The notes under the pieces were generated by a model, which ran no database searches, was not told the origin of the DNA, and saw only the letters and a list, made by a program, of their open reading frames with translations. The translations under genes and the position numbers were made by a program. From Cyanidioschyzon merolae (taxonomy: Eukaryota), in NCBI GenBank assembly GCA_000091205.1, contig AP006490.2: 64,000 nucleotides of DNA; one strand, given 5' to 3'. Shown one piece after another: positions 516 through 55,518 of the stretch. How positions within the stretch are numbered: the first letter of the stretch is position 1; every line of letters starts with the position of its first letter.

Positions 516-1355
516 AAGTTTATCGAACCTGTTTGTGCGTAAAACGTAGTTTTTGTATGTATGGTCGCTGTTTGGCATCCGGGTCCCTCACAAAGTCTCG
601 GAGCGGTCGCGTATGATGCACCGCCAGCGCCGTGAACCCGCTCGTTGCCCGGCTGCGGACAGCGCGTCGGCACTGCTTGCCGCATGCACGCCAGCAAGAC
701 GAGCTCGACGGGCGCCTGCGAGACAACTCCGTAAAAGCGCGCTCTGCACTATGAGAGACAAGCGCACGACGTCCATGACACCAAATATGATCTGGTACGC
801 GGGGATCGAGTTTCGTCGCTGACCACGAACGAAGCATTCCCGGTGCGATCTGTAAATGGAACAGCTAGGAGATGCCCGCAGACGCTCCGTTGACGAAGAC
901 GCGTATATTAAAGAAGACCATGCGATCCTGCTGGTCATCGTGATCGTGCGTTCTGTGCTTCTGGTAGTGACGAGCACAGCAGGCGCAACGCCTCCGCTCA
1001 GCTAGTTTTCCATCGTTCCAGTGCGGCAGCATCGTATATGGCATCTTCGCTACTGGCGCTGCACACACGCCTGCGATCTGCTCTACTGAAGAGTCCGCGA
1101 GACGAACGAAGCAATCGCGGGATATGCGATGCCTGTCAGCATTCAGTTAATCGACGACCGCTGCACATCAGACTTCGTACGTGCCGAGAACCCGGGGCAA
1201 GACTTGCCTTCGTGGATCACGATGCAGCGCGGGAGCGCTCCTGAGGCACGGCACGCGGGACATCCGCGAACGCATCCATGGTGTTGTAGGGGGCAGCCAA
1301 CCGCCATGCGGTATCGAGGATACCGCTGCGCCGATGGACAAGTCCAAGCGAACGT

Positions 1356-2792
1356 TTACACAGAACCGTTGAATGCCGGGGTCTCCTGCGAGCCTGCCTT
1401 GGCCATGCGCCAGACGTCGTCGCCTCGAGCGAGCAACTCTATCAGGTGCAGGCCGCTGGGCGTCTCCACGATGCCACTCAGTTGGCCGGGTTCCAGGTTG
1501 CGAACGGCTCGTTCGAATTCTGCATGCATCTCACCGGGCCCAAAAGGACGTATCCGACCGCCGTATCGGCTGCTTTTGCAATCGCTATGCTGCAAGGCCA
1601 GCTGTTCAAACGAGACGAGTCCGCTTTGTATCGTTTTCTGGAACTTGGACAGAAGGGCCCGCGCTTCCGCTTTACTACGCACAATGGGGTGGCCCTTCAG
1701 GTCGCTAGGGTTTCGTGATCCGGTATGCTTCAACAATATGTGACGAACATAAAAGACATCGTCCGGTGCCCGAGTCGCGTTCGACTGGGTCGCATCTGTG
1801 TCGCCACCGGTGATGCCGCTCGCGGGTGATGCCTGCTGCTCCGGACAGCGGCGACCGAGCAGCTGAATCAGATGGAAGCCAGACGAGGTCTCCACAACGT
1901 CGCTGATATCGCCGGTATGTTTCAGCTCCAGAAACGCCACTCGGGCAAATGGCTCCTGCATGGTTGTGTAGTCAAACCAGCCCAGGTCGCCACCTCGTTT
2001 GTAAGAATTACAGTCTGATTCGATTCGAGCGACCTCCTCAAAGCTTGCTTCCCCGCTGAGAATGTGTTGCCTCAGAGACTCAATCACAGCGCGTGCCTCA
2101 TCTCGGCTAATGCTCACTGGTTGTCCGGTGCGCTTGGATACCGGGTTCCGCACGTCGCGATGTTTGATAAGGATATGGCGAGCGCGCACCTGTCCAGGAA
2201 CTGGAGCCGCCGCAGTGCTCTCCGCAGGCGATTGACGCTCTGGAGCGCCACCAAGCCGAAGCCTCACGTATTGGGAGCTAGACCCGAACTCTATACGCGA
2301 GCCTTCAGCGATTACAAGTGGCTTAAGCGGCTCAACTTGTTGTCCACGTACTCGCGTGGCCCCAGCGCCCAAGTCGATCAGATAAAACTTTCGATGTTCG
2401 CGGTGAAATGCGACGGCAGCGTGGAGCGCTCCAACGTCAGACGCGTCCGCGAGAACAATGTCAACTGCAGTGGCCTTTCCTTGGCCGTTTCCAACAAGCA
2501 GGTAGCCCCGATTCGCCGGAAAAGGAACTTTGCGGACCCGCTCGTTGCTCTTTTGAGTGTAAACGTCTAGACGTGCGCCAGACGGTGCAGCCCCTAGCCA
2601 ACGTGGTTCTTTAAAGGTAGGTTGGGCTTTTACACCAGAAGCTTTGCGAGCAGCTTCCATAGTCTTTCCGTGCGACTTACCTCCCTGAGCGAGCGCGGTT
2701 TCGCCAGCGCTTTGTTTCCCTCTGTAGTAGACACGACCCACCGGTTTGATAAAGTATACCGCTTCTTTGCTCCCAAAGGTTTCCACGAACAA
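1356..2792 (-). CDS. FHA-domain protein with two tandem parvulin-type (PpiC/rotamase) peptidyl-prolyl isomerase domains
   Basis: 478-aa ORF. N-terminal region has an FHA-like block (GYLLVGNGQGKATAVDIVLADASDV...FYLIDLGAGATRVRGQQVEP...RIEFG). Two rotamase domains (ARHILIKHRDVRNP...GDLGWFDYTTMQEPFARVAF...SSGFHLIQLL and VRHILLKHTGSRNP...SGLHLIELLAR) resemble Pin1/Par14-type PPIase cores. TAA stop. Confidence 0.7.
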   Translation of the reverse strand: MFVETFGSKEAVYFIKPVGRVYYRGKQSAGETALAQGGKSHGKTMEAARKASGVKAQPTFKEPRWLGAAPSGARLDVYTQKSNERVRKVPFPANRGYLLVGNGQGKATAVDIVLADASDVGALHAAVAFHREHRKFYLIDLGAGATRVRGQQVEPLKPLVIAEGSRIEFGSSSQYVRLRLGGAPERQSPAESTAAAPVPGQVRARHILIKHRDVRNPVSKRTGQPVSISRDEARAVIESLRQHILSGEASFEEVARIESDCNSYKRGGDLGWFDYTTMQEPFARVAFLELKHTGDISDVVETSSGFHLIQLLGRRCPEQQASPASGITGGDTDATQSNATRAPDDVFYVRHILLKHTGSRNPSDLKGHPIVRSKAEARALLSKFQKTIQSGLVSFEQLALQHSDCKSSRYGGRIRPFGPGEMHAEFERAVRNLEPGQLSGIVETPSGLHLIELLARGDDVWRMAKAGSQETPAFNGSV

Positions 2793-5154
2793 CTAGAACG
2801 CTGTAGTCTCTACAAATGCGCCCTTGAATATGGAACCTTTCATTGCTACTGAAGTCAGACAGCCGAGCTTTTGGTGCCACAGCTCGAGACGGCTGCGTGC
2901 ACCCCTCTGTAACGCAGGCGTCGTGCCGCCGAACGCTACCCCAGCGAAGTGCGAGCTCGTGCGCACGGCTTTAGCGCCTTTTGCGGCAAACTAGGTGCGC
3001 TGGTCTCGACGCTCACCTTGGGCTACGTCGACATTCGAACGATATTCATCCTTACTGCCGCTGCTGCCGTCATCGGTTTCCTGGCGACGTTCATCTTCCT
3101 TCCGGATGCAACCGGGTTGGATCTGCGCGAACATGACTGGGAATGGGACCTGACTCTTCGTAACCACGCTGAGCTGTACGGCGGCGAGGCCGCCAATCTA
3201 CGACATCTGTCGCTCTGCGAACGCTGGCAAGGCAGAGGCAAACGCTACACGCCGCACTGGCGAGCCCAGTTGCGCAAAGAGGAACGTTCAAGTGATGCAG
3301 CGGCAACCAAGCTAGCAACACCGCCGATCGCGGCGAGCACCCTCATACCGTCTACTGCTCCTGACAATCGCTGAGCATCGAGCGAACGATCCGGTACGAT
3401 GATACGGAGTATGGATGCCGTGCGCGTTGTAAAGGATCAAGTGATATCTATTGACGCTGAGCGAAAGCGTGAGCGACGTACAACTTGACACTTGGGCGCA
3501 GCAGCGCGACGACACGAGCCATGTTCCCGTTTCGAAACGCGAGCACAGCACGAAGGTATCAGCAGTACCAGCGGGTGACTGCGGTAGAACGAGCACTCGC
3601 GCTGCCTGGCAGCGTCTCGCGCATCGCATGGAACTGGAACTCGTGCGTTGCGTTTACGACGAAAGCGCTACACCTGGATCCACCTAAAATGGAATAGGTC
3701 TCATAATTTGGACGCGCTCTCTAAAGCTCGAGACTGTTTCCACTGCCGCCAACACTAGTGTGTGCGGGGATTTTCTGCAACAGCGCCCGTTTGCTCTCTC
3801 TTATTTCAGATTTTAGATACGCCCGTCTCTCCTTTCTTTGCGGCTCCGATGTCAGCAGTGAAAGCACGATGGCGGTAGCGTCAGCATCCCGATTCGGACG
3901 CTTCTGGTTGTTTGCGACGCATTGCGTTCACGGACGGGAGATGCAATCTACGGTTCGCTTGCCATTTCGAGCCTCTTGGTATGCAACTTCTGTGCAAACT
4001 CTCTAGCTGTGGCACTTGGTTGTGGTCAGGCCCTCCCGAATGCATGTGTCAGACCTGCCCGTGCTCCGAGCGCTGCTGTGTCGCGCGTCCAGGCTCGCTG
4101 CGTCGCTCTGTTCATACCCCTTCGGATCCAGAAGGCTCCATTGGATGCTGTTCTCGTTTTCAACGCTCAGTGCTGCATCCAACGATCTGGGGCTTCTTCT
4201 GAGTGATGTCCTCCGGGAGTATTCTGTCTGGTGCACGGGCGGTTGCAGGCTATTCCCGCTGACCGAGGATGTATGGAACGTGATGAATTCCATCATAAAT
4301 CGAATACCAAAAACAAAATCCAGGCTGGAGATCATAAGCACAAGTGTCTGCCCGTCACCGTTCCCATTGTGCAAAGCGATGAAGACGCTCTCCGCTGGAC
4401 CCAGTGGATGCGATGACTCAATTCCGAAGACAAGAGCCTTTTCGATGCAAACAGAAGATACGGAAGCGTTTGGGAGCGTGTCACCCGAAATGCAGCATGC
4501 CGGTGCTGTCGAATGCAGTTGTGTCACTGGTCACAGCCACAGGAGGGTTTGTCTTTCGAACGCAATCGAATATTTGGGTGAGAAACTCAGGGACTTTTCG
4601 GCTTGAGCTGGCGAAGAACGCATCCTGGAATGACGCCCCGTTTTTTGATTCCCCTTCAATCCCACATCGCCTATAACGTTCCTTAGCGAGAGATCCATAA
4701 AATTAAAGCACGCGCGATTTGAACATCCTGCACATAAGGAACGGAGAAGACCGGAGGCTTATCCATATGGACTGACGATTGATATCCTTTGTTTCACGAA
4801 AACTAGTTCGAAGGAGGCGTGAAACGTCCTCATTCCGGCCACGTACCGAATTCCAGCGGCAAAGCGTCGAAAGAGCCACGTCGAACAGCGTGACATGAAT
4901 CCTGAGGCTACTTGTATGCGTCCGTAAGCTGTTACTTTTTGCACGTCGAAAACCGACTTTGCACATCTAAATTTTCGTTCGAAAAATACTCCGAGATGTA
5001 GGAACAAAGCACAGCATCCCGTGGTGCACTTCACTCGGATACGTATGAAGCGTATGCCGCTCTTCGACGAACGCTAGCTCAGCTTGTCTGCTGCTTGCTG
5101 ACCTCGAGGCGACCAGTGAGCGCCTCGAAGCACTCGAGTTGTCACGCCTAGGGT

Positions 5155-10693: not shown

Positions 10694-10949
10694 CTATGTT
10701 CACCACTTAAGTTGGCTGCAGGCGTGCAACCAGGGGATTTTGCCTGCTTTTCACGGTTTGCTCGGGAGCAGATAACAGCGCGAATGCCGAAGCGAACAAC
10801 GTTACGTCAGCGCAGCAAACCCGTTTCGCCACAATATCGTGTACATGAATATCCACCCGCAGACGTGTCTCAGCCTTTTCTTACAGGGTTCTGGTATCGG
10901 TTTCAGTTTCTCCATATACACTCCGACGCTGTGAGGCTGCCCAACAAAG

Positions 10950-11600
10950 TTAGCTTGCCGCAGCGCTGCGTGCCTCGCATTCAGCACAAGCATCTCCTGA
11001 TATTGATACCAGCGTTGAGGTCTCGGTTCATGGACTCCATGCGTTTGTTGCCGCTGGTTGATCTCACCAATGATAGGAGACCAGAACTCGTGTACGCTGT
11101 GCCATTGGGTGCTCTGTCAGCTCTTCGTGCTGATTTGTCGACGAAATGCTCCGCTGGCCTCGCTCCAACTCAACGTCCTAGGGTGTATATTCCAGCTCAT
11201 CCCTTCGATTTTTCGAAAATGAACGCATTTGCTTATAGCCTGAGATGAGAACCTTCCCGCATCGAGCAGCACATGCGGAATAAAGACCAAATGTGCCCCG
11301 GTTGGTCACCATGTGCTGAACGCTTCATCAATTCGCCCGGTGGAGCGATCGTGACGATTCAGGACCCCAAACTCTCCTTCTATGGGGATGAACCACGGGT
11401 GACAAGAAGGAATGAAACCAGCTCTACCCCTCGATAGAATTGGCAAGTGCTCGAACTGAAGCAGAACGGCTGAATACCACTGTGTCCAATAGAAGGACCT
11501 TACCAGACGTTTGGGACAAGTCTTCAATGACTCGACAAAAAGAGGGCGCTGCTGCATGAGTGTTCTCTTCAGCGGAACTGAGGCAGCCAAATGAATCCAC
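10950..11600 (-). mobile_element. Degraded fragment (copy 4) of the TnpB/Fanzor-like element family, minus strand, frameshifted
   Basis: The minus-strand translation gives VELERGQRSISSTNQHEELTEHPMAQRTRVLVSYH and, after a frameshift, GNKRMESMNRDLNAGINIRRC. These match copy 1 ([39 protein letters not shown]...[21 protein letters not shown]). The plus-strand ORF 10712..11248 is the mirror image of the same region. Confidence 0.5.
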
Positions 11601-14599: not shown

Positions 14600-15355
14600 T
14601 CAGCAACAGGTTATCACGCTTTGAGATAGACATATCCAGAAGCAATCTCCTGATCGGCGGCGGGGCGCAGGACAGCCGCTGCGCGTGCACGCGCACCTGG
14701 CAGATCCGGCGGGCACGAGACACGACGCTCTGGTCGCTCCTGAGGGGAACAGTGATCCTGATCATTGGCGTGCTATTCTACTGTAAAAGTTGTATTCGCG
14801 TTGAGGTCGTAGCAAAGTATAGGTTTTCTGTTCCATCCTATTCCGACCCTCAATTGAGTATATTCAAGTGTTTTTTCGAAGTAAATAACAGAAGCGTTCA
14901 AAGAGCGTTCGTTTTCATAAAAAATTAAAAGGAAAGGCATGGAAATGGAAGTGGAGGATCCCGGAGGGCCGATATCGCCGGCTCTCGGAAAAGAAGGATA
15001 AACATGGCGGAGCAAAGAGGAACAGGAAGTGATGAAGAATCAAAAGGGGGCGAGGTTCTACGTCGAAGGCGGCAAGAAAGGCAACTGTACGGCGATATTG
15101 TAGTGAAAGCCTGTGTTCTTAAATATATCAAGGATCCGTAGAAGGAAAAGTTGCCGGACGCCATCAAAAACCGTCTCGAGTCGTACTCCATGAGTATGAT
15201 AAAGGCTTCTTCAGGACCGACGCATTTGGTGAGGGAGATGTATCGCTACGTGACGAACATGGAAACGGTCGAGATTCCGGACGAGTTTTTCGACAACACA
15301 TTTTTTCGTCACTTGATGCTTGGCACAGGGGAAGAGCGGAAGGATATAAGAGCTA

Positions 15356-17506
15356 GTGCATGCCCCTCACGAACAACATCCCTTTTGCAGGTTCGAGGGT
15401 AATCGAAACAAGGGGGACTGGGGTATTTACGACTATGGGGCGATGAAGTACATCACGAACCTGAAGAACCATTTGAAAACGAACCTCGAACGTTTCATGA
15501 TACGCGCCGTGTTTGCACTCTACCGGGGCCTGTCTCGCAAAGGAATATGGGCGATTATCAATGGCATCACGAACGATCGAAACTATGGAAATGAGGTCGA
15601 ATTCGTTGACAAGAAGGAGTCAAACCAGAGCACGAATGAGAATTCCGTCATCCGTGCGGTTATCGAAGAGCATCGTGCGGTACTGGGGCTGGCGAATCCA
15701 ACAGACAAGATATCAGAGTTGAAAAAAGATAGGGAAAGATACGATCGCCTCGTTCTGCGCTATTTTGTGTTTCTGGACCGAGAGCTCGAACGCAAAGCGG
15801 AGATGAAGCTGAGTGAAGAGACAAATGAAGAGTGGGAGAGACGGAAGGCTTTCCTAATGGGTAAGCGCTTCGACGTGGTTCCAATGTGCAAGATCAAGTC
15901 ACATTTTATGACTATCGACTCCGGCGTCCTTTACGGCATCATGAGGGAGATCTGTCCGGAGTTCGATGTAAGGAAGACAGAGTTCCCCGGTGAAAACCGT
16001 GAGACGTACTGGAAGAATATCTTCGATTTCAAACGTCGCAAAGTCAGCAAACAAAAGGTATTCACTGGGTTGATCGAAACCGAAAGAGTAGCCTTGTGTA
16101 TACACTATCGGAGGTTGAAGAAAGATCGGCCAGTCCCTCCCTCGGCTGCGTCCGTCACGAAAAATGAAGAAAAGGAGGAGGCTGGTCCTGCGAAGCAGGA
16201 GGTAGAGGATAACGACCTTGTCGTTCACGCGGCGAAGAATGAAGAAAAGAAGGAGGCGGGTCCTGCGACGCAGGAAGTGGAGGGTAACGACCTTGTCGTT
16301 GACGTGACGAAGGATGAAGAAAAGAAGGATGCGGATCCTGCGACGCAGGAGGTAGAGAATAACAGCTTCATCGTTAACGCGACGAAGCATGAAGAAAAGA
16401 AGGAGGCGGGTCCTGCGATGCAGGAGGTGCATGAGAAGGACCTTCTCGTTGGCGCGGCGAAGGATGAAGATGAGAAGGATGCGGATCCTGCGACGCAGGA
16501 GGTAGAGAATAACGACTTTATGGTTGACGTGACGAAGCATGAAGAAAATGAGGATGCGGGTCCTGCGACCCAGAAAGTGCAAGATAACGACTTTGTCGTT
16601 GGCGCGGACCCTGGGAATACGAATATCATCACCATTGCAGCACCGAAGCGTGCGGAAGATCGTACTGACGGCAACTTGCGTCAGAAAGACATGCGTCTTT
16701 TGAGGTTCTCGAGAGCGAGATACTATCGAGAATCGGGAATCATGAATGCGAGGAAGAAAATCGAGACTTGGAATTCAGGAATGAAAGAGCACCTGGAAGC
16801 TGTGAGCGAGGTAACGAGCCGAGGAGCGGACTTTGAAGCTTTTCGGAAATTCATGGAAGTTCGTGTTGCGCATTGGGATGCTCTGTGGGAGGAGTATACC
16901 AAGCCCCGGTGGGCTCGACTGCGTATGAATCTATACGGTGGGAGGCAGCGCGCATTCCCAAATTTTTTCAATCAGTTGAGTGCCCTGAAGGAGGATGAAA
17001 GTCAGAGGCTCGTAGTAGCGTACGCAGCAGGGCGCTGGAAGACCCAAAAAGGGACTACTCCGGCCCCAACGACAAGAACGTTCAAGGAGTGCGCAAGGCG
17101 TTTCGTTACGATACCTGTAGATGAGTTCCGAACGTCGTATACGCACCATGAACTGGGGTGTACACTCCAGAGGGTGGAGATGGAAAAGTGCCAGCGGAGC
17201 CCTGAGGACACAGCAAAGCACGGACTGCTGACGGAGGAGCAAATGGAAAGGATGGCAAAAGTTCGTGGACTGCTTGCATTAGTGAGTACAACCAGTGATG
17301 GTAAGAAACGTATGGAATTCGTGAACCGTGACTTTAACGCCGCTATCAATATACGGAAATGTGCGGTGCTGGAGAAGAGACCTCCAGAATTGACAGGAGA
17401 GAATTTCGTTGGACAACCTCTCAAAGTCGAACTATATGAGAAAAAGTTGGAGGCAGTTGTAGGCGGCCGGTCGAGAAAGGCTGGGAGGCGTCTGCACGTC
17501 AGGTAA
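15356..17506 (+). CDS. TnpB/Fanzor-like RuvC-fold nuclease protein (transposon-encoded, IS605-OrfB/Cas12-related family)
   Basis: RuvC-I-like [15 protein letters not shown]. TnpB-like linker [26 protein letters not shown]. Zn-finger-like segment [11 protein letters not shown]...EKCQRS. Diagnostic RuvC-III motif [18 protein letters not shown] near the C-terminus. TAA stop. Confidence 0.7.
16160..16609 (+). repeat. In-frame 75-bp (25-aa) tandem repeat x6 inside the Fanzor-like ORF
   Basis: Units [150 protein letters not shown]. The last unit runs into the RuvC-I strand. Copy 2 has a single unit. Confidence 0.85.
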
Positions 17507-17824
17507 AGAGTTTTGTCTAAGGCGCCGGTCGTCTCAACTGTACACTGGCACCATCGCCGGTGCATTCGACAGATGGTGTCCATGTTGTACTGAATTTACC
17601 AGTCTCCGGCGTCGTGCAGCCGCGGCCCCGCTGCAGCACTGGCAGTGTCGCCACCGCCGTCCTTTCGTTCGCTCATCGGGTATCGTCTCCAGTCCGACTT
17701 GCTAGTGGCCCGCCTTCCCTGTAGAGGAAACAGGGACTGGACTGTTCGTGACCTCGCTACCGAGTTCCGGTCGCTGTTTGAGTTCTCTTGCAGTTGCGGT
17801 TTCCGCTAACTACTTGTCTTTCGC

Positions 17825-18598
17825 ATGGCGCGTGGCCCAAAGAAGCATCTGAAGCGCCTGGCAGCGCCAAGGCACTGGATGCTCGCTAAACTTGGCGGCA
17901 TCTGGGCCCCTCGACCTTCAGCTGGCCCACATAAGCTTCGAGAATGTTTACCTCTGATCATCATTCTGCGAAACCGGTTGAAGTACGCGCTCACTGGGCG
18001 AGAGGCTATGCAGATCCTCATGCAGCGGCTGGTTCGTGTGGACGGGAAAGTTCGCACAGACCGCACTTTTCCCGCTGGCTTCATGGATGTTATCCATATC
18101 GAAAAAACCAATGAGACATTTCGTTTACTCTACGACACAAAGGGGCGTTTTGTGCTCCATCGAATCACACCCGAGGAGGGCAAGTACAAACTGTGCCGCA
18201 TCAAGCGTCAACAACTGGGTGCCCGTGGCATCCCGTACATCGTGACACACGACGGGCGCACCATTCGGTATCCAGATCCATTGATCAAAGTGCACGACAC
18301 CGTCGTCCTTGATATCGAGACCGGGAAGATCACGGACTTTGTCAAATTCGACATCGGCGCGCTCTGCATGATCACCGGAGGCCACAATATTGGTCGCGTT
18401 GGTGTCGTACAGCACCGCGAGAGACACCCGGGTGCGACTGAAATTGTGCACTTGAAGGACGCTGCAGGGCGAGAGTTTGCGACACAGATCAGTAACGTGT
18501 TCGTTATTGGTCGAGAAAAGTCGCTCGTCTCGCTACCGCGTGGCAAGGGAGTGAAGCTCTCCGTCGTTGAGGAGCGCGAGCGGCGAGGCCTGCTCTAG
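17825..18598 (+). CDS. RPS4: 40S ribosomal protein S4 (eS4)
   Basis: [44 protein letters not shown]... is near-identical to eukaryotic RPS4 along the full length (257 aa). TAG stop. Confidence 0.95.
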
Positions 18599-18949
18599 AC
18601 ACACACATGCAGCGCGCTTGGCAACATACGCCGTTGGTTGACGTGAATCAAAGCGGATTGGGAGCCTTCCAGTGTCTCGTAAAGACGGAGAACCGTTTGC
18701 GGGAACTGTTCGAGGAACATCGGTTGGGACACCTCCCGTGAGGAGGCGGGACGCTCTGCCTCCATGGATATTCCCTCAACGCAGCACCCGTGTCAGATAA
18801 AAATGGAATACTGTACTACTCGCCATGTGACTGTTTCTCGATTTTTTACGAATCTTATCAGATGTACGGCATCGGCATTCGAAACGCAGCGGTGAGAGCT
18901 TACAGGGTCATGAATTGCTTCAGGATCCCTGACCGTATGTTCGTTCGGA

Positions 18950-19560
18950 GTAGCTCCATCGATGTTTCGCGTCTGGGAGTCGTTATATCACCGGAATCAA
19001 GATGATTCGCGACGCGGTCGAACAGGGGTTCGGAAAATAACCAATCTCATTATCGGAGTCATGCCTATAGGCTTCCAGACTTCTCATTTGCTTACGTGCA
19101 GCACGCACGAATCACGAAGTTTTCACGTTTTCGAGTTTCAGTTTCGAGGCAACTCGTGCGCGCAGCGATCCGCATCTGTTGACGGATGCGGAAAAGTGTC
19201 GACGACGTCCGTCGACGACTTGTTCAAAAGCTCATTCCGGAAGTTCACTGACTATTCTACCTCGAATCATCGATTCCGTTAGGAAAACAAATCCCACTTT
19301 CTTTGGTGCGATCGACAACACCGCACTCTACGTCAGCATGGTAACACCCAGGGTAGATGCCCTGGAAGGATCCCGCCTCTTCTGTCTGCGTGGACAAGGG
19401 TCCTGGAATCGGACTTGCCAAGTCGCAGTAACGTTGTCTCACTCTAGAGTGTATCGTATACTCGCACAAAAGGACGCGGAGACGGATCGAAATTTCTCGA
19501 CTTGTTCTCCATCATGAATTTTTTTCCTACGGCACTTGTTTCATCATGGACAGCATCGTG
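18950..19560. repeat. Dispersed repeat family, copy A (about 610 bp), unclassified non-autonomous element
   Basis: Shares blocks with 54241..54920 and 32010..32160. Shared blocks are atcgatgtttcgcg, gatgattcgcgacgc, cgacgacttgttcaaaagctcat, aagggtcctggaatcggacttgc, gtgtatcgtata, ggatcgaaatt and cttgtttcatcatggacagcatcg. No coding capacity. Confidence 0.55.
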
Positions 19561-20578
19561 CTTCGCCAATCCTTTATCGGATGCAACGTTGTGCGCTTAC
19601 GTGTGCTTCGGATGAAGTCCTCGCCGGGCGGAGTTCCCCCAGAAGCAGCTCACGATCATAGGGTCTAGAACCGGGCACAGCAACGGAGGCACGCGTCTAC
19701 GGAAGAGCCTTCTTCGCTCGTCGAGGACGTGAACCGAGCGATGAACCGAGTGTGCACGCGCCAAAGTATCGCCCTCCGAGTTCTAGCGGGATGAGCGGGG
19801 GCAGGTGCAGGCGATACGGTACACATTCCCTAACACATGACGACAGCGAAACGTTATCGCTACGACGGGCGCATCGAGGCCTCATCCAAAGAACACGAGC
19901 ACGGCAAGCGAAGCGTAGACGGCAACGTTTGCTTGGACATGAACAATGTTGACAACAGCCAGAAGCGTCGATATCGGAATGCCAACGCTACCACCAACAC
20001 CATTCGACTGCTGAAAACGGAGCTTGATAGACACGATTGACCGACGGACTTTAAAGCCGCAGATGTTCTAGAGGAAAAGAAAGCAGTCACAGAAAAAATC
20101 CGAAAATGCTGGTGCTGATTACCGAGGGAAGCGATCCAGAGTGTGGCGTGCACGCCCGAGTCACAGGGCACGCTCCATTACATGCTGACACGGGTTCCGT
20201 GCCAACATCCAAGGACGTTGCTTCCAAGGATATCGTTCGGATCCAGACCCCGTGAACACGCTACCCGAATATGAAACGTACTTTCTGAGGCGCGCTACTG
20301 CACCTTTTTCCACTTCAGGGGCGATGACCGAAGCGTGCGCAGCAGTAGCATCGCAGCGGTCGTGCAGCGGCGTCCGCGGAGACAACTCCAGCGTGCCCAG
20401 CGCGAGCCGCGCGCCGTGCACCTGGCAGGTACTCTGGAAGGCACGAAAGCTGCGGAACGTGTGCTTCTTGTCATGCTTTGTAGCAGGTACCTGTGAACGT
20501 GCCATTCCGGTGCCCAACGGCTCTTCTTGCTGATGCGATGTTTTAACGCAACTTGCAGTAGACGGTCACTGAGCACAC

Positions 20579-30680: not shown

Positions 30681-32009
30681 CCGGCCCCTGATTGCGCGTC
30701 ATGGTGGCGCGCTGTCCGCGAGGCACGCGCGCGCGATGAGGCGCCTTCGTGGCGAACAGCATGGACTCGCGTGTCCCTCGGTATCAGAGGGATATACCGG
30801 AGCATCCTCAGACGCGAGGACATTGACTCGAAGCAGCACCCAAAGCGATGCAAACTGCCCCCGATGTTGGACGGATACGCGGAGACACTGGCAGCTGCGA
30901 ACGCCGCCACCATGAGCCAGACGAGCAGAGGCGTCAACGAACATTTGAAAGGTTTCCGCGCATCTGTGGCGCGATTGCTCGATGCGCACATACTCTGGTG
31001 TAGGGCTCAAGCGCATCGGATCCGTGCTAGGGCGTGCGCAAAACCTCTAGAACAAAAACACGTAGCAGAGCAGTATGACGGGAACGCTTGCTGCTTCCGA
31101 ACGAGCCTCGCAGCCAGCGTGACGTTCTATCGGCTGCGTGGGCCCCCATCCAGAGCGCACCGTATCTAGGCGCGAAGCGGCTCTGCACGGCGAAGACGCT
31201 GCATAGCACCTATGTCGTTCGCTCAAGCGCGTGACGCAAGTCTGCAGCGTGCGACAGGCCAGAAACCGCGTTTTATTTGATAGACGACGATTCTCACTGG
31301 AATACGCATCGCTGTGAACGCGCGGTTGCGAGAGCAACCCGCGATGCAGGTCGCGAGTGCCCAGGGCACGAACGCGCGCCCTGTCCGTTTCTATGTGTCG
31401 CATGCGTAGCCGGTACTCGCTGATGTCTATTGCCTGCGCTAGCGTTTATATAGGATTAAAATCAAAGCCTGAACTACTCGCTCTGTCCCTGGAATGCGAG
31501 TGCTTCCGAACTCGTTTAGATACGCAGTTTCGATGTTCCAAGTACAGCAACAAGGGTGTGCTCGTCTAAACGTAGTTCAGGGTTGGCTGGTCGGTTATTC
31601 GGGGTGGCGCATTCTGCTTTTCGGCGCTAGAACTCATGACGGTATCGGAAACAGGATGATTGAGATGTGCTGGAACAAGTGCGCAAACAATATCGGTTAT
31701 TGATTTTCTGATTCGTACGTAGCAGCATATATTCATTCCGCTTCCTGACGTGCTGCATGCGTCAAGTTTTCGATCCCGCTTCGATGCGGTAACTCGCAGG
31801 CGCGGCGAGTGGCGCTTCTGGACTGGAGACGAAACAATGCCGATCTCGTGCCCGGATGGCTCGTTCAGAGGCTCTTGTCGAGCGTTTACTGATATTCTCA
31901 CGTAAACGAATAATAGAATACGTCCGAAAGCCAAATGCTTATCTCATTGTGGTTATTGGCGAAACGGCACTCGAGACGAACAAGACGCTTTTCACGGGGA
32001 ATGCCCCCA

Positions 32010-32160
32010 GAGGCTCCCTTCTCTCCTGTTTGCATGAACAAGGGTCTTGGAATCGGACTTGCAACATCGCAGCAGCGCCGTCTCAGTCGAAAGTGTATCG
32101 TATATTCGCAGGCAAGGAAGCGTACACGGATCGAAATTGCTCGTCTTGTTTTCCAGCCGG
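32010..32160. repeat. Dispersed repeat family, partial copy B (3' half only)
   Basis: aagggtcttggaatcggacttgcaacatcgcag...gtgtatcgtatattcgcaggcaaggaagcgtacacggatcgaaattgctcg is homologous to 19385-19500 of copy A. Confidence 0.45.
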
Positions 32161-33184
32161 GATTCCGCTTTCGTTGCCTAATTCACTTTTGACAGCGTTG
32201 AGATCCACAATCCTCAATCGAATGGGAAAGCGCTCGCTTCCACGTGCAGCCGACTGAGAACTCGTCGAGCGGGTCGACCAGAGCAAGCCGGTGATCTTCG
32301 GGTATGGCACCTCAGCCGGCATCGGACGACGGCATGGAAGCAAGGCTTCTGTGCCCGTCACCAGCATGTATCGATCGATGAATCATGCGTTTATGCGTCA
32401 TAGGGCAACCACTGGAATCGGAGGCGGTGGCATCGATACATGGGAGTACCGAACCACAGTAACGTGTCACCACGACGAAGAGCACACTCAGGCCGTATAC
32501 AACGTAGACGATGACAAAAATTGGATCATCGATCGCGAAAACCTTCTCTCTATCAAGTGCGTAGACAACAGCAGGAAGTCGCGAAATACCAACCTTTCAC
32601 GCTGCTATCAAAACCCTTCGACTACTGACAACGGGGCTAGATGGACAGGAGTGACCGACGCACTGAAAGCCGGAGATAAGAGAGACAATAAGGAACGAGT
32701 CGTAGAAAAAAGTCTGCGAAAGCTAGTCGTGATGACGATCGAAAGAGACCCAGATTTCAGAACGGTCGCTTGAGTTTGGTGACTGTGTAGACCCCCGTGC
32801 CATGCGCTGCACGCAGGGGAAGGACGGCCCTGGACCGGCACCAGCGCGATCGGTGGAGCCAACCTGTGTCTGCAAAATCCCTAAAGGTTCAGTTTCAGTA
32901 GCAACGGCGCGTCGCCAGCGGGCACCATGCCGTGCACGATGCCGTCGACCGCATCAGGCTTCTTCATAGAAACTGTAACTAACTGGAATAAAAGGACAGC
33001 TTGCGGCGGGCTCGTCGCCAGCCGCCGTCGCACTACGACGGTCTCTCCCTGACCCAGAAACGTCTCTGGACTTGCGCGTTACCGACTGGGTCGACGTCGA
33101 AACGAACTCGTTTCCGTTGCTAGTACTGACCTCCACATACGCGCATCGTAACGCATCGAACAACACACATACGTTCCGAAAAAA

Positions 33185-38264: not shown

Positions 38265-40330
38265 CTGAAAATAAACGTCTTTCTAAGGAAAAACGCTGCC
38301 ACCGGCGGGCGCAATACAGTCTTGGCGAGAAACCCGCCCTGGACAAGACTTCTCCAACTGACGTGCAGACGCCTGCCAGCCTTTCTGGAACGGGCACCCA
38401 CTACTGCTTCCAATTCTTTCTCATATAGTTCCATTTTGAGAGGCTGTCCGACAAAATGCTCTCTTGTCTACGCTGAAGGTCTGTTCTCCATCACCGCACA
38501 TCGCCTTCAATGGATAGCGGTATTTACGTCCCGGTTCTCAAACTCCATACGTTTCTTGTTATTGATCGTACTTACTGATGCAAGTTGTCCACGAACTTTT
38601 GCCATCCTTTCCATTTGCTCTTCCGTTAGCTGTTCGTACTTTTTTATATCTTCAGGGCTCCGCTCGCACTTTTTCATCTCAACTCTCTGGCGTGTACAAC
38701 CCAGTTCGTGGTTTGTATACGATGCCCGGAACTCATCGATGGGTATCGTAACGAAACGCCTTGCGCACTCTCTGAATGTTCTTGTCGTTGGAGCTGGCCT
38801 AGTCCCTTTTTGGGTCTTCCAGCGCCCTGCTCGGTACACTACTAAAAGCCTCTGACTGTCCTCCTCCTTCAAGGCGCTCAACCCATTGAAAAAGTTTGCG
38901 AACGCCCGCTGCATCCCCCAGTACAATTTCATAATGAAAAGAGAACACCGGGGCTTTGTATATTCTTTCCACAGCGCCTCCCAATGGGCAACACGAACTT
39001 CCATGAATTTCCGAAAAGCTTCCTAGGCCGCTCCGCGGCTCGTCACCTCGCTCAAAGCTTCCAGGTGATCATTCATTCCTGCATTCTACGTCTCGATTTT
39101 CTTGCTTGCATTCATGATTCCCGATTCTCGATGGTATCTCGCTCTCGAGAATCTCAACAGACGCATGTCTTTCTGAGGCAAGTTACCGTCAATGCCATCT
39201 TCCGCACGCTTGGGTACTGCGATGGTTACGATATTCGTGTTCCCGGGGTCCGCGCCAACGACAAGGTCGTTATCCTGGGGATTATACATTTCAGGGCCCA
39301 CCTCCATCTTATCTTCATGCTTCGTCACGGGCGAAGCGCAAGGCGCGATGGGACGATCCACCTTCAACCTCCGATACTGTACACACATGGCTACTCCATC
39401 GGTTTCGATCATCCCAGCGAATACCTTTTATTTGCTCACTTTGGGACGTTTGAAATCGAAGATATTCTTCCAGTACGTCTCACGGTTTTCACCGGGGAAC
39501 TCTGTCTTCCTTACATCGAACTCCGGACAGATCTCCCTCATGATGCCTTGAAGGACTCTGGAGCCGATGGTCACACAGTGTGACTCGATGTTGTTCAACG
39601 GAACGACGTTAAATTGCTTCCCCATTAGGAAAGCCTTTCGTATCTCCGACGCTTCATTTTTCTCCTCACTCAGCTTCATCTATGCCTCGCGTTCCAGTCC
39701 TCGGTCCAGGAACACGAAATAGCGCAGGATGAGGCGATCGTATCTTTTCTTATCTTTTTTTTCATCTCTGATAACTTTTCTGTTCGGTTCGCCAGCCCCA
39801 GTACCGCACGATGCTCTTGTATAACCCAACGGATTACAGGAGCTTCATTCTTTCTCCTGCGTGATGTCTTCTTGTCGAAGAATTCGATCTCCTGTTCATT
39901 CTGGCAATCCTTCGTGATGCCATTGATAATCGCCCATATTCCTTTGCGAGCGATGCCCGGGTAGAGTGCATAGACGGAGCGTTTCATGAAGCGTTCGAGG
40001 TTCATCGTCAAATGGTTCTTCAGGTCCGTATGGTACTTGATCGTCCCGTAGGTTTAAAGATCCGAATCACCCCTGTATCGTGTACCCTCAGGGCGGTACT
40101 CGGCGTGATTCTCGTGGAGGGCATGAACCCGCTCATTTCCCCTCCGCGTTTCCCCTGTGCCAAGCATCAGGCGACAAATCAAGGTCCTGTCGAAAACGCT
40201 TTCGAAATCTCGACTGGTTTGATGTCCGTCACTGCTGCTGTGCCAGGGAAACTTCGTGCGCCTGATCGCACGCTGGAATGTGTTGTCGACGGGGCGCACT
40301 TCGGTGCAATGGATGGAACGTTGCGGAGCG
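38265..40330 (-). mobile_element. TnpB/Fanzor-like element, copy 2 (inverted, frameshifted/degraded, single repeat unit). Boundaries are approximate
   Basis: Minus-strand ORF pieces 40054..40299, 39676..40011, 39428..39679, 39086..39412, 38507..39004 and 38252..38434 are colinear with copy 1 protein (LMLGTGE..., [11 protein letters not shown]..., [69 protein letters not shown]..., [23 protein letters not shown]). Conserved 3' tail is present. Confidence 0.65.
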
Positions 40331-40533: not shown

Positions 40534-42717
40534 TTACGCTGCATTCCCCGATTCTCTTTTCGCGAAAAGCTCGTACTCAACCTCTAGACTATCGTTTGTG
40601 GGATAGTCGGCTACAACCCGCTCGTACAAGTAGAGCGCATTCTCGTTCGTGACACTCTCGTCGATGTAGGCGCGTGCCTCGCGCAGCAGACGTGCGCTAT
40701 CTCGAGACAGACCCCACAGATGCAGCCGAATACCATAGCTCCTATACTGACGGGCTAGGGAGTCTAGCGCCTCTAGCGCTGTCGCGTCCCAGATGCGGCT
40801 ACCAGAGAAGTCGATGATCACGTGCTCATGGCCTTCGGCACGATCCCGTGCTGGGTCGAACAGACGACTGAAGCGCTCCGCCGTGCCAAAGAACAGCGGA
40901 CCGTCAATCCGGTATCCCCGCCATCCGCGCGTTTGCTCGTCCTCCGAAATAAAGCTCTGGGCGGTAATGCGTCGCGACGCTTTATAGGCAAAGACCAGCG
41001 CCGAGAATACCACACCAAACAGGACCGCCAGGGCGACGTTGCGCGTTGCTACAGTCATCAGGGCAACGCTCACAATGGTCAGCGAATCAGCGAGAGGTAT
41101 GGCACGAAACAAGCGCAGCGATGCCCATTCGAATGAGCCCAGCGCCACCAGCACCATAAGGCTTGCAATGGCTGGGACGGGAATCCGAATCATCAGTCCG
41201 CTCGGATTTCTCGCCAACACGAGAAGACACAGCGCCGCAGTCAGTCCAGAGAGACGCCCGCGTCCCCCTGATTTCGTGTTCAGAAGCGACTGGCCCAGGA
41301 GGCCGCAGCCGCCCACGCCACCGAATAAGCCCGCGGCGATATTCCCTGCCCCAAGCGCTAGACACTCCCGACGCGTGCTACCCCGCGATTCCGTGACTTC
41401 GTCTACCAAAGTCATGGTTAAAAGAGATTCCAAAAGACCGATGAATGCGAGACCAAGCGCGGTGCTCAGAATGGCCATCCATGCCAGCGGTGTTGACGGC
41501 AGGGCTGCCCAGGATACGCCAATGGCCCCTGACTGTGCCAGCGTGTCGCGCAAAAAGTCGCCAAGCCGCCGCACAGGCGCTTGCGTCACCTCCGCATAAA
41601 TGGATGCCACGAGGATGCCCGCTAGTGGGCTTGGGAGCCAACGCAACAGCTCAGCGAGGCGGTGCTGCCACCGATGGGTACTATCGGGGCGCCGGCGCTC
41701 TAGTCGCTGAATGATCAAGGGCCATACATGGGCGACTCCAGCGGCGAGCGCTGCGACGATCAACGCTGCACGCAACATGTTACCCTGGAGCCAGGGTGCG
41801 CCCGGGCTCAGCCCGGTTCCCGCTGGAAGCTGAAACGCATAGACCTGACTTGTCGCCGTCAAGATGGCGATGCCGCTGATGAATCCCAGAAAGGTAGGGT
41901 ACGATATCAGCCGCACAAACTTTCCCAAACGATAGATCCCGAAGAAAAGCTGGAGTATACCGCTGAGCACCACGGCGGCAGCGACCGCTGCTGCGCCGTA
42001 CTGTTGATAGAGAGGCGCTTGCAGAATAATGAGCGCTGCAGATGTTCCCGAGATCATGCCAGGGCGTCCTCCCAGTGCGGCAGTTATCGCACACAGGAGA
42101 CCAGTCGAGACGATTCCAGCGAGCGGCGGCACGCCCGTGGCCAACGCGCAAGACGCCGCCGCAGGCAGCAGCGCCATCGCCACCGTAATGCCCGCCAGCA
42201 CTTCCTCTACCGTCGAGCGTAGCGGATAGCGCGCTGTGCGTTCGTCCAAAATCCGACGCTCTCCAACGAAATAGCGCCCGATATCCTCACGTGGTGCAAC
42301 GAGCGGGAAGAGCCCTCGCTCACCAGGCTTGGGACGGTGCCTCGCTTCGGCGTCGGGGGTACCCCCTGGCGCCGAACCTGTCCCCCGTACGCGAGCAAGT
42401 GCTCCGCAGCGCGTACGCCGCCTCGCGCGGAACCCAGGCACCACCAGCGAGTTGCACTGGCTCCGGTTCCGTACGACGAAACGTACGCCGCTACCGCTGA
42501 AGGTATTCGTTACTATGAAACCGCCTAAAGCATTCTCAACGCCCATGTTCCGACGAAAGTACCTTGCGTGTCCAGTGAACAGGCAGTGCACAACAAGGCG
42601 CTCGTGCATTGCCGATGCTTCCGACGCGAGCGCTGAGATCCGTACATGCAATCTCGGATGGCGGGCAGTTTGATCTCCGCATGAATCTATAATGTGGGGA
42701 GTATCGGGCATTCGCAA
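40534..42717 (-). CDS. SulP-family sulfate/anion transporter. The about 150-aa N-terminal part of the ORF is probably upstream non-coding read-through, with the true start at an internal Met
   Basis: Multi-TM core (TVEEVLAGITVAMALLPAAASCALATGVPPLAGIVSTG...GGRPGMISGTSAALIIL...) plus C-terminal STAS-like region (YRIDGPLFFGTAERF...VIIDFSGSRIWDATALEALDSLARQY). TAA stop. Confidence 0.8.
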   Translation of the reverse strand: MRMPDTPHIIDSCGDQTARHPRLHVRISALASEASAMHERLVVHCLFTGHARYFRRNMGVENALGGFIVTNTFSGSGVRFVVRNRSQCNSLVVPGFRARRRTRCGALARVRGTGSAPGGTPDAEARHRPKPGERGLFPLVAPREDIGRYFVGERRILDERTARYPLRSTVEEVLAGITVAMALLPAAASCALATGVPPLAGIVSTGLLCAITAALGGRPGMISGTSAALIILQAPLYQQYGAAAVAAAVVLSGILQLFFGIYRLGKFVRLISYPTFLGFISGIAILTATSQVYAFQLPAGTGLSPGAPWLQGNMLRAALIVAALAAGVAHVWPLIIQRLERRRPDSTHRWQHRLAELLRWLPSPLAGILVASIYAEVTQAPVRRLGDFLRDTLAQSGAIGVSWAALPSTPLAWMAILSTALGLAFIGLLESLLTMTLVDEVTESRGSTRRECLALGAGNIAAGLFGGVGGCGLLGQSLLNTKSGGRGRLSGLTAALCLLVLARNPSGLMIRIPVPAIASLMVLVALGSFEWASLRLFRAIPLADSLTIVSVALMTVATRNVALAVLFGVVFSALVFAYKASRRITAQSFISEDEQTRGWRGYRIDGPLFFGTAERFSRLFDPARDRAEGHEHVIIDFSGSRIWDATALEALDSLARQYRSYGIRLHLWGLSRDSARLLREARAYIDESVTNENALYLYERVVADYPTNDSLEVEYELFAKRESGNAA

Positions 42718-43345
42718 TTTTTTTTTCAGTGAGTTGAGTGCCTTGAAGGAGGATGAAAGTCAAAGGCTCGTAGTAGCGTACGAAGCAAGGCGCTGGACGA
42801 CCCAACAAGGGTGTACACCAGATCCCACGACGAGAACGTATACGGAGTGCGCAAGGCGTTTTGTTATAATACCGGTAGATGGATTTCGAGCATTGTATAC
42901 ACACCATGAACTGGGCTGTACACTTCAGAGGGTCGAGATGGAAAAGTGCCAGCGGGGACCTGAGGATATAAAAAAAGTACGGACCGCTGACAGAAGAGCA
43001 AATGGAAAGGATAGCGAAAGTTCGAGGATTGCTTGCGTTAGTAAGTACAATCAACGGCAAGAAACGTATGGAGTTTGTGAACCGAGACTTTAACGCCGCA
43101 ATCAATATAAGGAAATGTGCGGTGAGAGAGGAAAGACCTCTCGGGTCGACGAGAGAGAATTTTGGAGGAAAACCGCTCAAAGTTAAACTATATGAGAAAA
43201 AGTTTGAAGCAGTAGTAGGTGGCCGGTCCAAAAAGACGGGCAGGCTTCTGCACATCAGTCGGAGACATTTCTTCTAGGGCGGCCCGGTCGCCACTACTGT
43301 ACACCGCTGGCGTCGTTCGCCTCCTGAACAGCGTTCGGTGTCGGC
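42715..43345 (+). mobile_element. TnpB/Fanzor-like element, copy 3. A 5'-truncated 3' fragment that begins at a poly-T tract
   Basis: About 90% nucleotide identity to copy 1 positions about 16962-17590. Encodes [20 protein letters not shown]... and [19 protein letters not shown] with frameshifts. Conserved post-stop tail is present. Confidence 0.65.
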
Positions 43346-51211: not shown

Positions 51212-51372
51212 AACCGATCGTTTATGCTCAGCATCAATGTTCATTTTATGGGCGTATACATTCCAAGCGTACGGGATGTGTCTCCGTGGATACCGATCGT
51301 TTATGCTCAGCATCAATGTCAATTTGATGGGCATATACATTCCCAGCAAAAGGGGTGTGTTTCCGTGGACTC
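51212..51372. repeat. Tandem duplication of a roughly 79-bp unit (2 copies)
   Basis: accgatcgtttatgctcagcatcaatgt[t/c][c/a]att[tt/tg]atgggc[g/a]tatacattcc...gtgt[c/t]tccgtgga occurs twice head-to-tail. Confidence 0.6.
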
Positions 51373-53487: not shown

Positions 53488-54240
53488 TCAGCTGGCATCT
53501 ATTTCCTGTCTGAGGACGCCCCTCGGGGTCGTTCTTTACGTCGTTTGTGTCGCTTGAAACGGTATGGAGGCATTCCCAAATGAAAACAGACAGGTTCCAG
53601 CCCGTTCGCTCATCCATGGAGCGGCATCGCTACATAGTAGCGACTCAGTGCGAGGAGCAGTCGGGCCTCCTGAGATTGACTCCGAATCCGCAACCGGTCT
53701 CTGGCGGGACAGAGCGGCATCCTCAGCAGCGGAGACGTCTGTGGAGGCATTGCTGGCAGCTCAGAACGCACTCGCAATGCGCGAGCTTAGCATCCGCAGG
53801 ACCTACATCGCTGGATTGACCTATCGTATATCCCATTAAGCATTCGTGTGCTGGAGGTCGTAGACCGTGCAAGCGTCCATAAGTAAAATGTTGCTGAGGC
53901 CCCGCAGACGGATAGAGATTCCTTTTTGCAGCAAAGTCTATTCAAAGTTATGCAGCCGGTGCCATAGCAGGGTCCAATGGTTTCTGCTCCGAGTGCAAAA
54001 GGAAGTCAGGCATTGGGAGAATTCTGGATTCATGCATCGACCGTCGACCAAATCAAGGCTGGCGAAGGCATGCACTAGACCCGTGTCAGATTAGAAGGAA
54101 ACACTGGGCTAGTAGCTCGGTTCTCGGCTTGAGATTTTTCTAGATTGTTTAGATTGCACGTCTCGAGGTTCGAACGGCAGCTAGAGGGCCTAACGGATTC
54201 ATACGTAGTTTCAGGATTCTCGCTTGTCTTTTCAGAGTGG

Positions 54241-54920
54241 CTCTATCGATGTTTGGCGGCTCGCATCCGTTCCATGAGAGGAATCAGGATGATTCGCGAC
54301 GCCACTGAACATGGGTTCCTAAATTAACAGATATCTTTATCGAGTCCTTTGGTGCAGGTCTGCAGTCTTCTCTTTTTCCTCCCTGTAGCATGTTCAAATC
54401 ACACATTCATCATGTCCTCGATCTTTATGTTTTTGAAGGTAACTCGTGGGCACTGATGTTCGCGCCTCTGGATTGGCGATGAGAAATGCTGGACGTCGTC
54501 CCGTGACGACTTGTTCACAAGCTCATACAGAAGGCGTACTGAACTTGTCACGTCGAATGATTCATGCCCTTCTAAAGACAAATTATGTTCCCTTTTGTGG
54601 CCTGCGACGAATGGTATTCCAGAGCAACCGCATGATACGTGACACTGGATACGCTACCAGAGGCACCCGTGTCCTCTGAAAGGAATCCAGAGCAACAGCA
54701 CGATACCTGACACCGGATGCGCTACCAGAGGCACCCGTGTCCTCTGTTACCGTGGAAAAGGGTCCTGGACCCCGACTTGCATCAACGTCGCAATTACTCC
54801 CAGTGGGGAGTGCACCAACGCTTTGGGCGAAGGGAGCGTAAAAGGGTCGAAATCGCTCGAATTGCTTTCTAGCCTGAGTTTCCCTCCTGGTGCTTGTTTC
54901 ATCATGGACAACATCGGGTT
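54241..54920. repeat. Dispersed repeat family, copy C (about 680 bp) with an internal 60-bp tandem duplication at 54617-54740
   Basis: Colinear shared blocks with copy A (see 18950..19560). Internal unit ccagagcaacNgcaNgataccNgacacNggatNcgctaccagaggcacccgtgtcctctg is repeated twice. Confidence 0.55.
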
Positions 54921-55518
54921 CCACGAATCCTCTGTCGAATGGAACATCCTGCGACTGCGCCTTCAGCGGACTGAGAACTCACCTGGTGAACAGCGCAGAA
55001 AACGTCACTGCTGGTATTATAGGGTATCGGGCTCGGCAGCCGAATAGATGCAGCGAGCGGAGCCTTCTTTTCCCGTCAGGGCATGTACAGGACGATGACG
55101 CAAGTGTTCACGCCCCAGAGGGCAGCGCTCGGAGGAAGGTTCGTGGTGGGCATATGGGAACACCTGATAAGAGCAACTAGTCACCACTACGACGGGTGCA
55201 TCTAGATTGCATACAAAAAGGATGAACAGGACAACCGCAGATCGCAGCAATCGCCCGTATATGAAATGCATCGACAACAACCGGAATCGGCGAAATCGGA
55301 ACTTGATCGCTGCGATCAACATCCATCGACTGCTTGCAACGGAACCGGAAGAGGCAGGAGAGACCAGCATGTTCGAAGTCGCGACATAAGCGAGAGGAAA
55401 AGGAAGCAGTTCCAGAAACTGTCTACCAAGGCTCGTGTTCATGATAGTGGAAGAGAATCCCACCGTAGAAAGTACTTGCGTATGATCCAGCTGGACCCGT
55501 TCTATTTTGGTGTTATGT

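Follow-up and report, generated by a model that had tools for sequence, protein, structure and literature searches.

The window analysed here, a 64,000-nucleotide stretch of Cyanidioschyzon merolae contig AP006490.2 (GenBank assembly GCA_000091205.1), carries on its plus strand, at 14689–17545, a copy of the Fanzor1 element CMe-1A, referred to below as copy 1. Its nuclease gene is represented by an open reading frame (ORF) of 716 codons at 15356–17506 on the plus strand, which opens with a GTG start under translation table 11 (the first ATG is at 15443) and corresponds to consensus residues ~137–728 plus five extra copies of a 25-residue unit. These units belong to a 75-bp in-frame tandem array that ends immediately ahead of the RuvC-I aspartate, and it is the nature and history of this array that concern us. 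According to Bao and Jurka (2013, Mobile DNA 4:12, PMC3627910), C. merolae has a single Fanzor1 family, CMe-1/CMe-1A; the CMe-1A element has ~150 genomic copies at roughly 80% identity to its consensus (3169 bp, encoding a 734-residue protein), lacks terminal inverted repeats, and is represented mostly by old, degraded copies (PMC3627910).

The DNA consensus published as Additional file 2 of PMC3627910 (3169 bp) was compared with the window by blastn, and the 734-residue consensus protein by tblastn. Copy 1 spans consensus positions 658–3137, lacking the 5' 657 bp (the TE-N2_CMe-like part) and the last ~32 bp; its DNA identity to the consensus is 83.7% before the array and 90.3% after it, and its protein identity is 74% over residues 127–430 and 91% over residues 405–728. 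At 84–90% DNA and 74–91% protein identity, copy 1 and the CMe-1/CMe-1A consensus are the same element. Exact look-ups in public protein collections returned neither the GTG-start nor the ATG-start protein, Pfam gave no credible match to the copy 1 ORF or to its relatives, and the window ORF protein alone had no phmmer match in the PDB. The solved Fanzor1 of Spizellomyces punctatus, SpuFz1 (PDB code: 8GKH), was reached by family profiles only, with E = 7.8e-5 (2.7e-5 with a broader alignment). The profile alignment pairs GADPG of CMe-1 with VIDPN of SpuFz1, VDEFRTS with LDEYKTS, and the RuvC-III segment with NRDMLSTCNM.

The active-site residues of SpuFz1 are D383, N385, E541 and D606 (Saito et al. 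2023, PMC10432273), and because the Asp at 16607–16609 aligns with that active site, it can be assigned to the RuvC-I catalytic position. This residue, Asp418, is encoded by the first codon past the array and lies in the RuvC-I motif GADPGNT (16601–16621). RuvC-II, PVDEFRTS, lies at 17114–17137, with Glu590 at 17123–17125, and aligns to LLDEYKTS of SpuFz1; RuvC-III lies at 17321–17353, with Asp659 at 17330–17332, and aligns to NRDMLSTCNM. Upstream of the array, the last strands ahead of the linker (16061–16120; all of these on the plus strand) align with the region labelled WED in SpuFz1 by Saito et al. The two proteins therefore have a common order of WED-like strands, linker, RuvC-I DP, RuvC-II DE-x-x-TS and RuvC-III NRD. 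They differ in that the linker of SpuFz1 is ~40 residues long and non-repetitive, whereas that of CMe-1 is acidic and repeat-expanded. Moreover, the CxxC pairs of a zinc ribbon are absent between RuvC-II and RuvC-III of copy 1, where SpuFz1 has CPRC and CTNPNC (a CxxC/CxxxxC arrangement); CMe-1 has HH...C...C at these positions, which might serve as a metal ligand. For the Pfam domain Cas12f1-like_TNB, the match on a relative has an E-value of only 0.23. CMe-1 also differs in having no known RNA partner or activity. As a side observation, PF26935 (DUF8286) is present, mostly flagged as 'weak', in precomputed annotations of several relatives (P0001 among them) and in the gene tables of the contigs L002, L003 and L086–L088 (L labels denote loci from metagenome contigs, P labels protein clusters or relatives); a local Pfam scan did not reproduce the match. 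DUF8286 appears to cover part of the Fanzor1 protein.

Tandem Repeats Finder (TRF) delimits the array at 16157–16606 on the plus strand, with a period of 75 bp, 6.0 copies, 79% matches, 1% indels and a score of 541; alternative rows with periods of 150 and 225 bp have 84% matches each, and the 75-bp spacing was found again by a separate repeat search (family D1). A first-pass annotation of the window had correctly described a sixfold 75-bp in-frame array, albeit with limits (16160–16609) shifted by 3 nt. The six units, each of 75 bp and 25 residues, lie at 16157–16231, 16232–16306, 16307–16381, 16382–16456, 16457–16531 and 16532–16606, in codon register with the ORF, unit 1 starting from codon 268 at nt 16157. 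Each encodes an acidic linker stretch, KxEEKKEAxPATQEVxD, and the first half of the RuvC-I strand, NDfVVGA, and the hydrophobic L/F-V/I-V pattern is retained in every unit. In the register of the catalytic Asp, units 1–6 read HAA, DVT, NAT, GAA, DVT and GAD, as had been reported from the first reading, followed by DPGNT. The last unit is continuous with GADPGNT, and since the family profile aligns vvGADPGnt with VVVIDPNKRD of SpuFz1, which holds D383 and N385, the earlier identification of this unit as the genuine RuvC-I strand is borne out. Pairwise identity among the six units is 76–88%, with units 3 and 5 at 88% and units 4 and 6 at 84%. A search of the unit borders for microhomology from which the first duplication might have started gave no convincing direct repeat at 75-bp offset in the family consensus.

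The residues of the array include 44 acidic and 17 basic ones, giving a net charge of −27, and their mean hydropathy is 0.367 against the Uversky boundary of 0.478, in agreement with the suggestion, made at first reading, of a charged, disordered linker; the flanks carry a net positive charge. Purines make up 67% of the sense strand of the array, and of the antisense frames across it one has 0 stops and another 1. Two antisense ORFs that span the array on the minus strand, one of 227 residues at 15899–16582, whose frame is without stops inside the array, and one of 149 residues at 16225–16674, are by-products of the repeat, as had been proposed, because the repeat is purine-rich and lacks stops; a Pfam scan gave no credible match to either.

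The family-wide distribution of arrays was examined through a DNA search with the one-unit consensus, of which the best 80 of 344 matches were taken and, with loci already collected, yielded 47 sequence-distinct copies. A single unit (63 or 75 bp) is found in 20 of these, two units in 11, three in 12, four in one, five in two, and six in one, the window copy; 27 of the 47 thus have 2–6 units, whereas only one unit, followed by DPGNT, is present in the consensus protein as published. Two of the copies (L028 and L049) are one locus, leaving ~46 insertion sites, and the other flanks are unrelated save for an alternative 5' end described below. Array lengths in 85 sequences are all multiples of 3. 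A protein search with the ORF as query, which is biased to repeat-rich matches, gave 44 clusters with 0–6 units; six units occur in P0033 and also in P0117, in which four of the six are ~90% identical.

The orthologous locus, recognized by its RPS4 and Vps35 flanks, was recovered from five metagenome samples (L001–L005). These sequences are 98.3–98.8% identical to the window, and the array is exactly 450 bp in all of them. Comparison of repeat number among copies and strains, which the first-pass annotation had put forward as a check, therefore gives 1–6 units over the family and a constant length at the window locus.

Units from multi-unit arrays find their best match in another copy in 67 of 79 cases and in their own array in only nine. 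Best matches outside the window array reach 92% both for unit 5 (to unit 3 of L040) and for unit 6 (to unit 5 of L032). Moreover, the last unit is a class of its own: 21 of the 27 last units are matched best by another of their class, and residues at four positions are diagnostic of last versus non-last units (H/D at position 3, K/E at 15, F/L at 21 and G/D at 24). A neighbour-joining tree built from the flanks has one-unit lineages at its base and the multi-unit copies in a more nested part, with the window copy adjoining three-unit and five-unit copies. From the units, the tree and the census together it follows that elements were still mobile when they carried arrays, and that unit numbers changed repeatedly later.

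Change of this kind, apparently allelic, is seen at L086 and L087, which represent one locus in two hot-spring samples, flanked by genes for an MFS transporter and a DEAD_2 helicase and 99.1–99.3% identical. The array of L086 (4469–4693) is 225 bp long (three units), and that of L087 (4355–4726) is 372 bp long (five units minus one codon); the extra units at L087 are nearly identical to each other. Inside groups of near-identical copies, including the window locus, no length variation was seen. The pattern fits slippage or unequal exchange that requires highly similar units.

Selection was assessed from the ratio of nonsynonymous to synonymous polymorphism (pN/pS). Among paralogues it is 0.32–0.36 over the 120 codons that follow the array and 0.46 over the preceding WED-like strands, against 0.97 for codons 1–17 of the unit and 1.05 for pairs of units within arrays. 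Purifying selection on the amino-acid sequence of the units was therefore not detected (0.97–1.05 versus 0.32–0.46 in the flanking domains). In intact relatives of the protein (P0061 and P0063; 42–43% identity) the same place is taken by a short non-repetitive linker, and (N/D)DFV-x-x-x-DPG is kept. AlphaFold2 models gave a mean predicted local distance difference test score (pLDDT) of 36.8 for the window protein (45 sequences) and 44.9 for P0061 (44 sequences); the array has pLDDT ~20–24 and no secondary structure in the window model, which is unreliable as a whole, so that this carries little weight.

Copy 1 itself is a pseudogene, and its rate of drift is roughly that of intergenic DNA. Upstream of the ORF, at 14939–15360 on the plus strand, lies a degenerate N-terminal coding region matching consensus residues 1–141, with three in-frame stops and two frameshifts: the tblastn high-scoring segment pairs fall in frames +2, +1 and +2, and the stops read GKEG*TW, IKDP*KEK and GRI*ELV. 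It is these stops and frameshifts, not the array, that identify the copy as a pseudogene. Additionally, TDG, which is near-invariant in the family (D381; P0003 has IETDGVALC at the site), has become TER in the window strain only, positions 16084 and 16085 differing from all five orthologous assemblies, and two of those five (L001 and L004) have a premature stop at codon 232 of the ORF. Element diversity between strains is ~1.7%, similar to that of intergenic DNA, compared with 0.26% for RPS4.

Several observations on copy 1 concern possible exchange between copies. At 17195–17284, 14 differences in 90 bp set the window and L002 apart from the four other assemblies of the locus, differences elsewhere being at ~1–2%; this looks like a short gene-conversion tract from another CMe-1 copy, and a similar cluster of differences is seen in L003 at 15014–15159. 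Upstream of the array, a tract of ~700 bp (15100–15950) is 94–100% identical to the paralogue L011, the rest being 80–90% identical. In a test of whether the array is a recombination breakpoint that renders copy 1 chimeric, the L011-like tract was seen to stop ~200 bp short of the array. It stems either from gene conversion among copies or from L011 itself, a short contig and possibly a chimeric one.

A further observation is that several of the longest ORFs of different copies begin near consensus residue ~127–139, just ahead of V(H/R)ALHE. This common start is seen in the window (15320–15360), in L019, L021, L043 and L054, and in P0002, P0004 and P0005, and its recurrence may point to a lesion inherited from a defective master copy; if so, copies were amplified without an intact Fanzor gene.

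Taken together, we consider it probable that the array is a coding minisatellite, old, inherited, neutral and tolerated, and that it sits in the Fanzor1 gene of CMe-1A where a poorly conserved linker joins the last WED-like strands to the first RuvC strand. The first duplication of the unit would have occurred in the ancestor of one sublineage of CMe-1A, from which arrays were then presumably moved along by transposition, units being both gained and lost through unequal recombination or replication slippage between them. Slippage would be ongoing where units are nearly identical, as at L086/L087 (3 versus 5 units), and would have ended at the window locus because its units have diverged by 12–24%. 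Upstream of the catalytic Asp, each unit would contribute a spacer of 25 residues, acidic, low in hydrophobicity and probably disordered, which the nuclease fold would tolerate and which would have no sequence-specific role. The nearest known parallel is with coding minisatellites (variable number tandem repeats) in disordered regions, which share head-to-tail units, a unit length divisible by three, neutral evolution, and a unit number that varies among copies and, at L086/L087, between samples. They differ from the CMe-1 arrays in that the latter sit in a multi-copy transposon gene, so that transposition also spreads and diversifies them, and in that allelic change of unit number is not seen at the window locus, with six units in all six sequences.

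Some points weigh against this interpretation. With the AlphaFold models unusable, the linker is called probably disordered on its composition, poor conservation and neutral substitutions. Sampling of the family is biased, as the protein search favours repeat-rich matches and the locus search used a one-unit query. Units of 75 bp at ~80% identity carry little phylogenetic signal, such that the exact history of the six units is not reconstructable, although the aggregate is clear. The metagenome contigs are short-read assemblies, and the L086/L087 difference could in principle be an assembly error. Finally, the region past the array has a pN/pS of 0.17–0.32 among the orthologues of copy 1, which could suggest residual constraint on the pseudogene; the low value is at least partly explained by the gene-conversion-like tract at 17195–17284.

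The alternative that survives best, which we nonetheless regard as unlikely, is that the acidic array is an adaptive module of an active nuclease, either a disordered region that is autoinhibitory or mimics nucleic acids, or a tunable spacer that separates the recognition lobe from the nuclease lobe, with unit number under selection. Arrays are indeed borne by transposing elements and are present in the longest ORFs, the most intact copies found carrying 3, 4 and 6 units; among these, L088 (P0001) has four units in 752 uninterrupted codons and lacks an ATG only, with one stop 29 codons before the end. A net charge of −27 adjoining a basic nucleic-acid-binding protein, and a frame kept at all array lengths, also favour such a role, but a 75-bp unit keeps the frame automatically. 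Moreover, the pN/pS of the units is ~1 against 0.32–0.46 for the flanks, unit number varies between 1 and 6 without favouring any value, and basal family lineages and the intact relatives at 42–43% identity do without the repeat. Nor was a fully intact CMe-1A copy found among those examined. A more specific proposal, that an active CMe-1 Fanzor1 bears 2–6 acidic 25-residue modules directly upstream of the RuvC-I strand and that repeat-length polymorphism tunes its activity, for example through autoinhibition by a nucleic-acid-mimicking disordered tail, seems to us more doubtful still; were it true, a eukaryote would possess an RNA-guided nuclease whose unit number is inherited and acts as a 'dial'.

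The first-pass annotation had taken the array for a recent expansion specific to copy 1 that might mark the copy as decaying, a version already largely refuted and in our judgement very improbable. Six units is the highest count among the 47 DNA copies, and the closeness of units 3/5 (88%) and 4/6 (84%) hints at one two-unit duplication within the array. Against a recent origin, the units are only 76–88% identical, and all six sequences of the locus, which differ by 1.2–1.7%, have the same array length. Against a private one, 27 of the 47 copies have 2–6 units, most units of the arrays are closer to those of other copies (67 of 79), multi-unit copies cluster in the tree, and six units are also present in the protein clusters P0033 and P0117. 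As for decay, copy 1 is indeed a pseudogene, and that part of the claim stands, but it is so by its N-terminal stops and frameshifts; the array is a poor sign of it, as the single-unit copy 2 of the window is more degraded and the most intact copies carry 3, 4 and 6 units.

It is less credible again that the Asp-less strand-like segments (ND-L-V-V-x-A) serve as decoy first strands that compete with the RuvC-I strand and hold the nuclease off. The hydrophobic L/F-V/I-V pattern is present in every unit, but this is explained by descent from the duplicated strand, and the strand-like codons of non-last units are unconstrained, with a pN/pS of ~1.9 (from small counts) against 0.54–0.79 in last units; that only the strand of the last unit looks constrained argues against a decoy role. 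Lastly, although assembly errors classically arise at tandem repeats and the contigs used for comparison were assembled from short reads, a repeat that was collapsed or inflated is barely worth entertaining, as the array is 450 bp in five independent assemblies from five samples and neighbouring units differ at 12–24% of positions, so that reads place uniquely.

The remainder of the window places copy 1 in a mobile-element context: it holds four copies or fragments of the element, and 344 related stretches with distinct flanks were found in metagenome contigs. Copy 2, also CMe-1A, lies at 38276–40232 on the minus strand (consensus 1215–3169); it is 5'-truncated, has seven stops and one frameshift, and has a single unit at 39251–39325, as originally read. 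Copy 3 (42674–43312, plus strand; consensus 2507–3145) is a 3' fragment only, without the array region, and a fourth fragment, old and degenerate, lies at 10895–11282 on the minus strand, matching consensus residues ~589–714 in three frames at 68% DNA identity. The neighbouring ORF at 17825–18598 encodes ribosomal protein S4e (RPS4) and is identical to C. merolae 10D BAM79871.1, which marks the window as nuclear DNA of this red alga or of a very close strain. Dispersed repeats that are 70–78% identical and unrelated to CMe-1A are seen at 18944–19628 versus 54231–54986 and at 19357–19520 versus 32001–32164, and short tandem duplications, likewise unrelated, at 51213–51369 and 54618–54746.

The termini of the element show further regularities. 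Many copies start at consensus ~650–690, including copy 1, L006, L007, L009, L014, L019 and L020; the 5' 635 bp missing from such copies were equated with TE-N2_CMe by Bao and Jurka (PMC3627910). Several of the 5'-short copies have a common alternative upstream sequence, 72–88% identical, pointing to a second 5' module or subfamily. At the 3' terminus there is a hairpin, AACGTTTTTC-TTTT-GAAAGACGTT or CGTTCGA-CTT-TCGAACG, seen in copy 2 (38272–38299, minus strand) and also in L007–L082; it is conserved in 18 of 22 copies, in which it folds better than nearly all shuffles, and copy 1 lacks this terminus. A small hairpin just past the stop codon has a GC to CG swap in eight copies. Both 3' hairpins are candidates for a signal in transposition or for a segment of a guide RNA. 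Across 22 3' ends RNAalifold gives a weak consensus structure (−9.1 kcal/mol), and an Rfam scan of the whole window gave no matches.

The family-wide arrays go unmentioned in the CMe-1 paper, where 'tandem' occurs 0 times in the main text (PMC3627910), and a full-text literature search for tandem repeats in Fanzor proteins returned nothing relevant, so that the novelty of these observations is descriptive and modest. No new mechanism is revealed, and copy 1 is a dead gene. The value is mainly corrective: the only red-algal Fanzor1 family has been published as a one-unit consensus, which conceals the 2–6 modules present in most sampled copies. The linker just ahead of the RuvC-I strand is a natural acceptor of 25–125 extra residues in frames that stayed open, and this WED–RuvC linker is accordingly a candidate insertion site for reconstructing or engineering a CMe-1 nuclease. 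Overall, the CMe-1A arrays offer a clean example of a minisatellite spread by transposition and then frozen through the divergence of its units.

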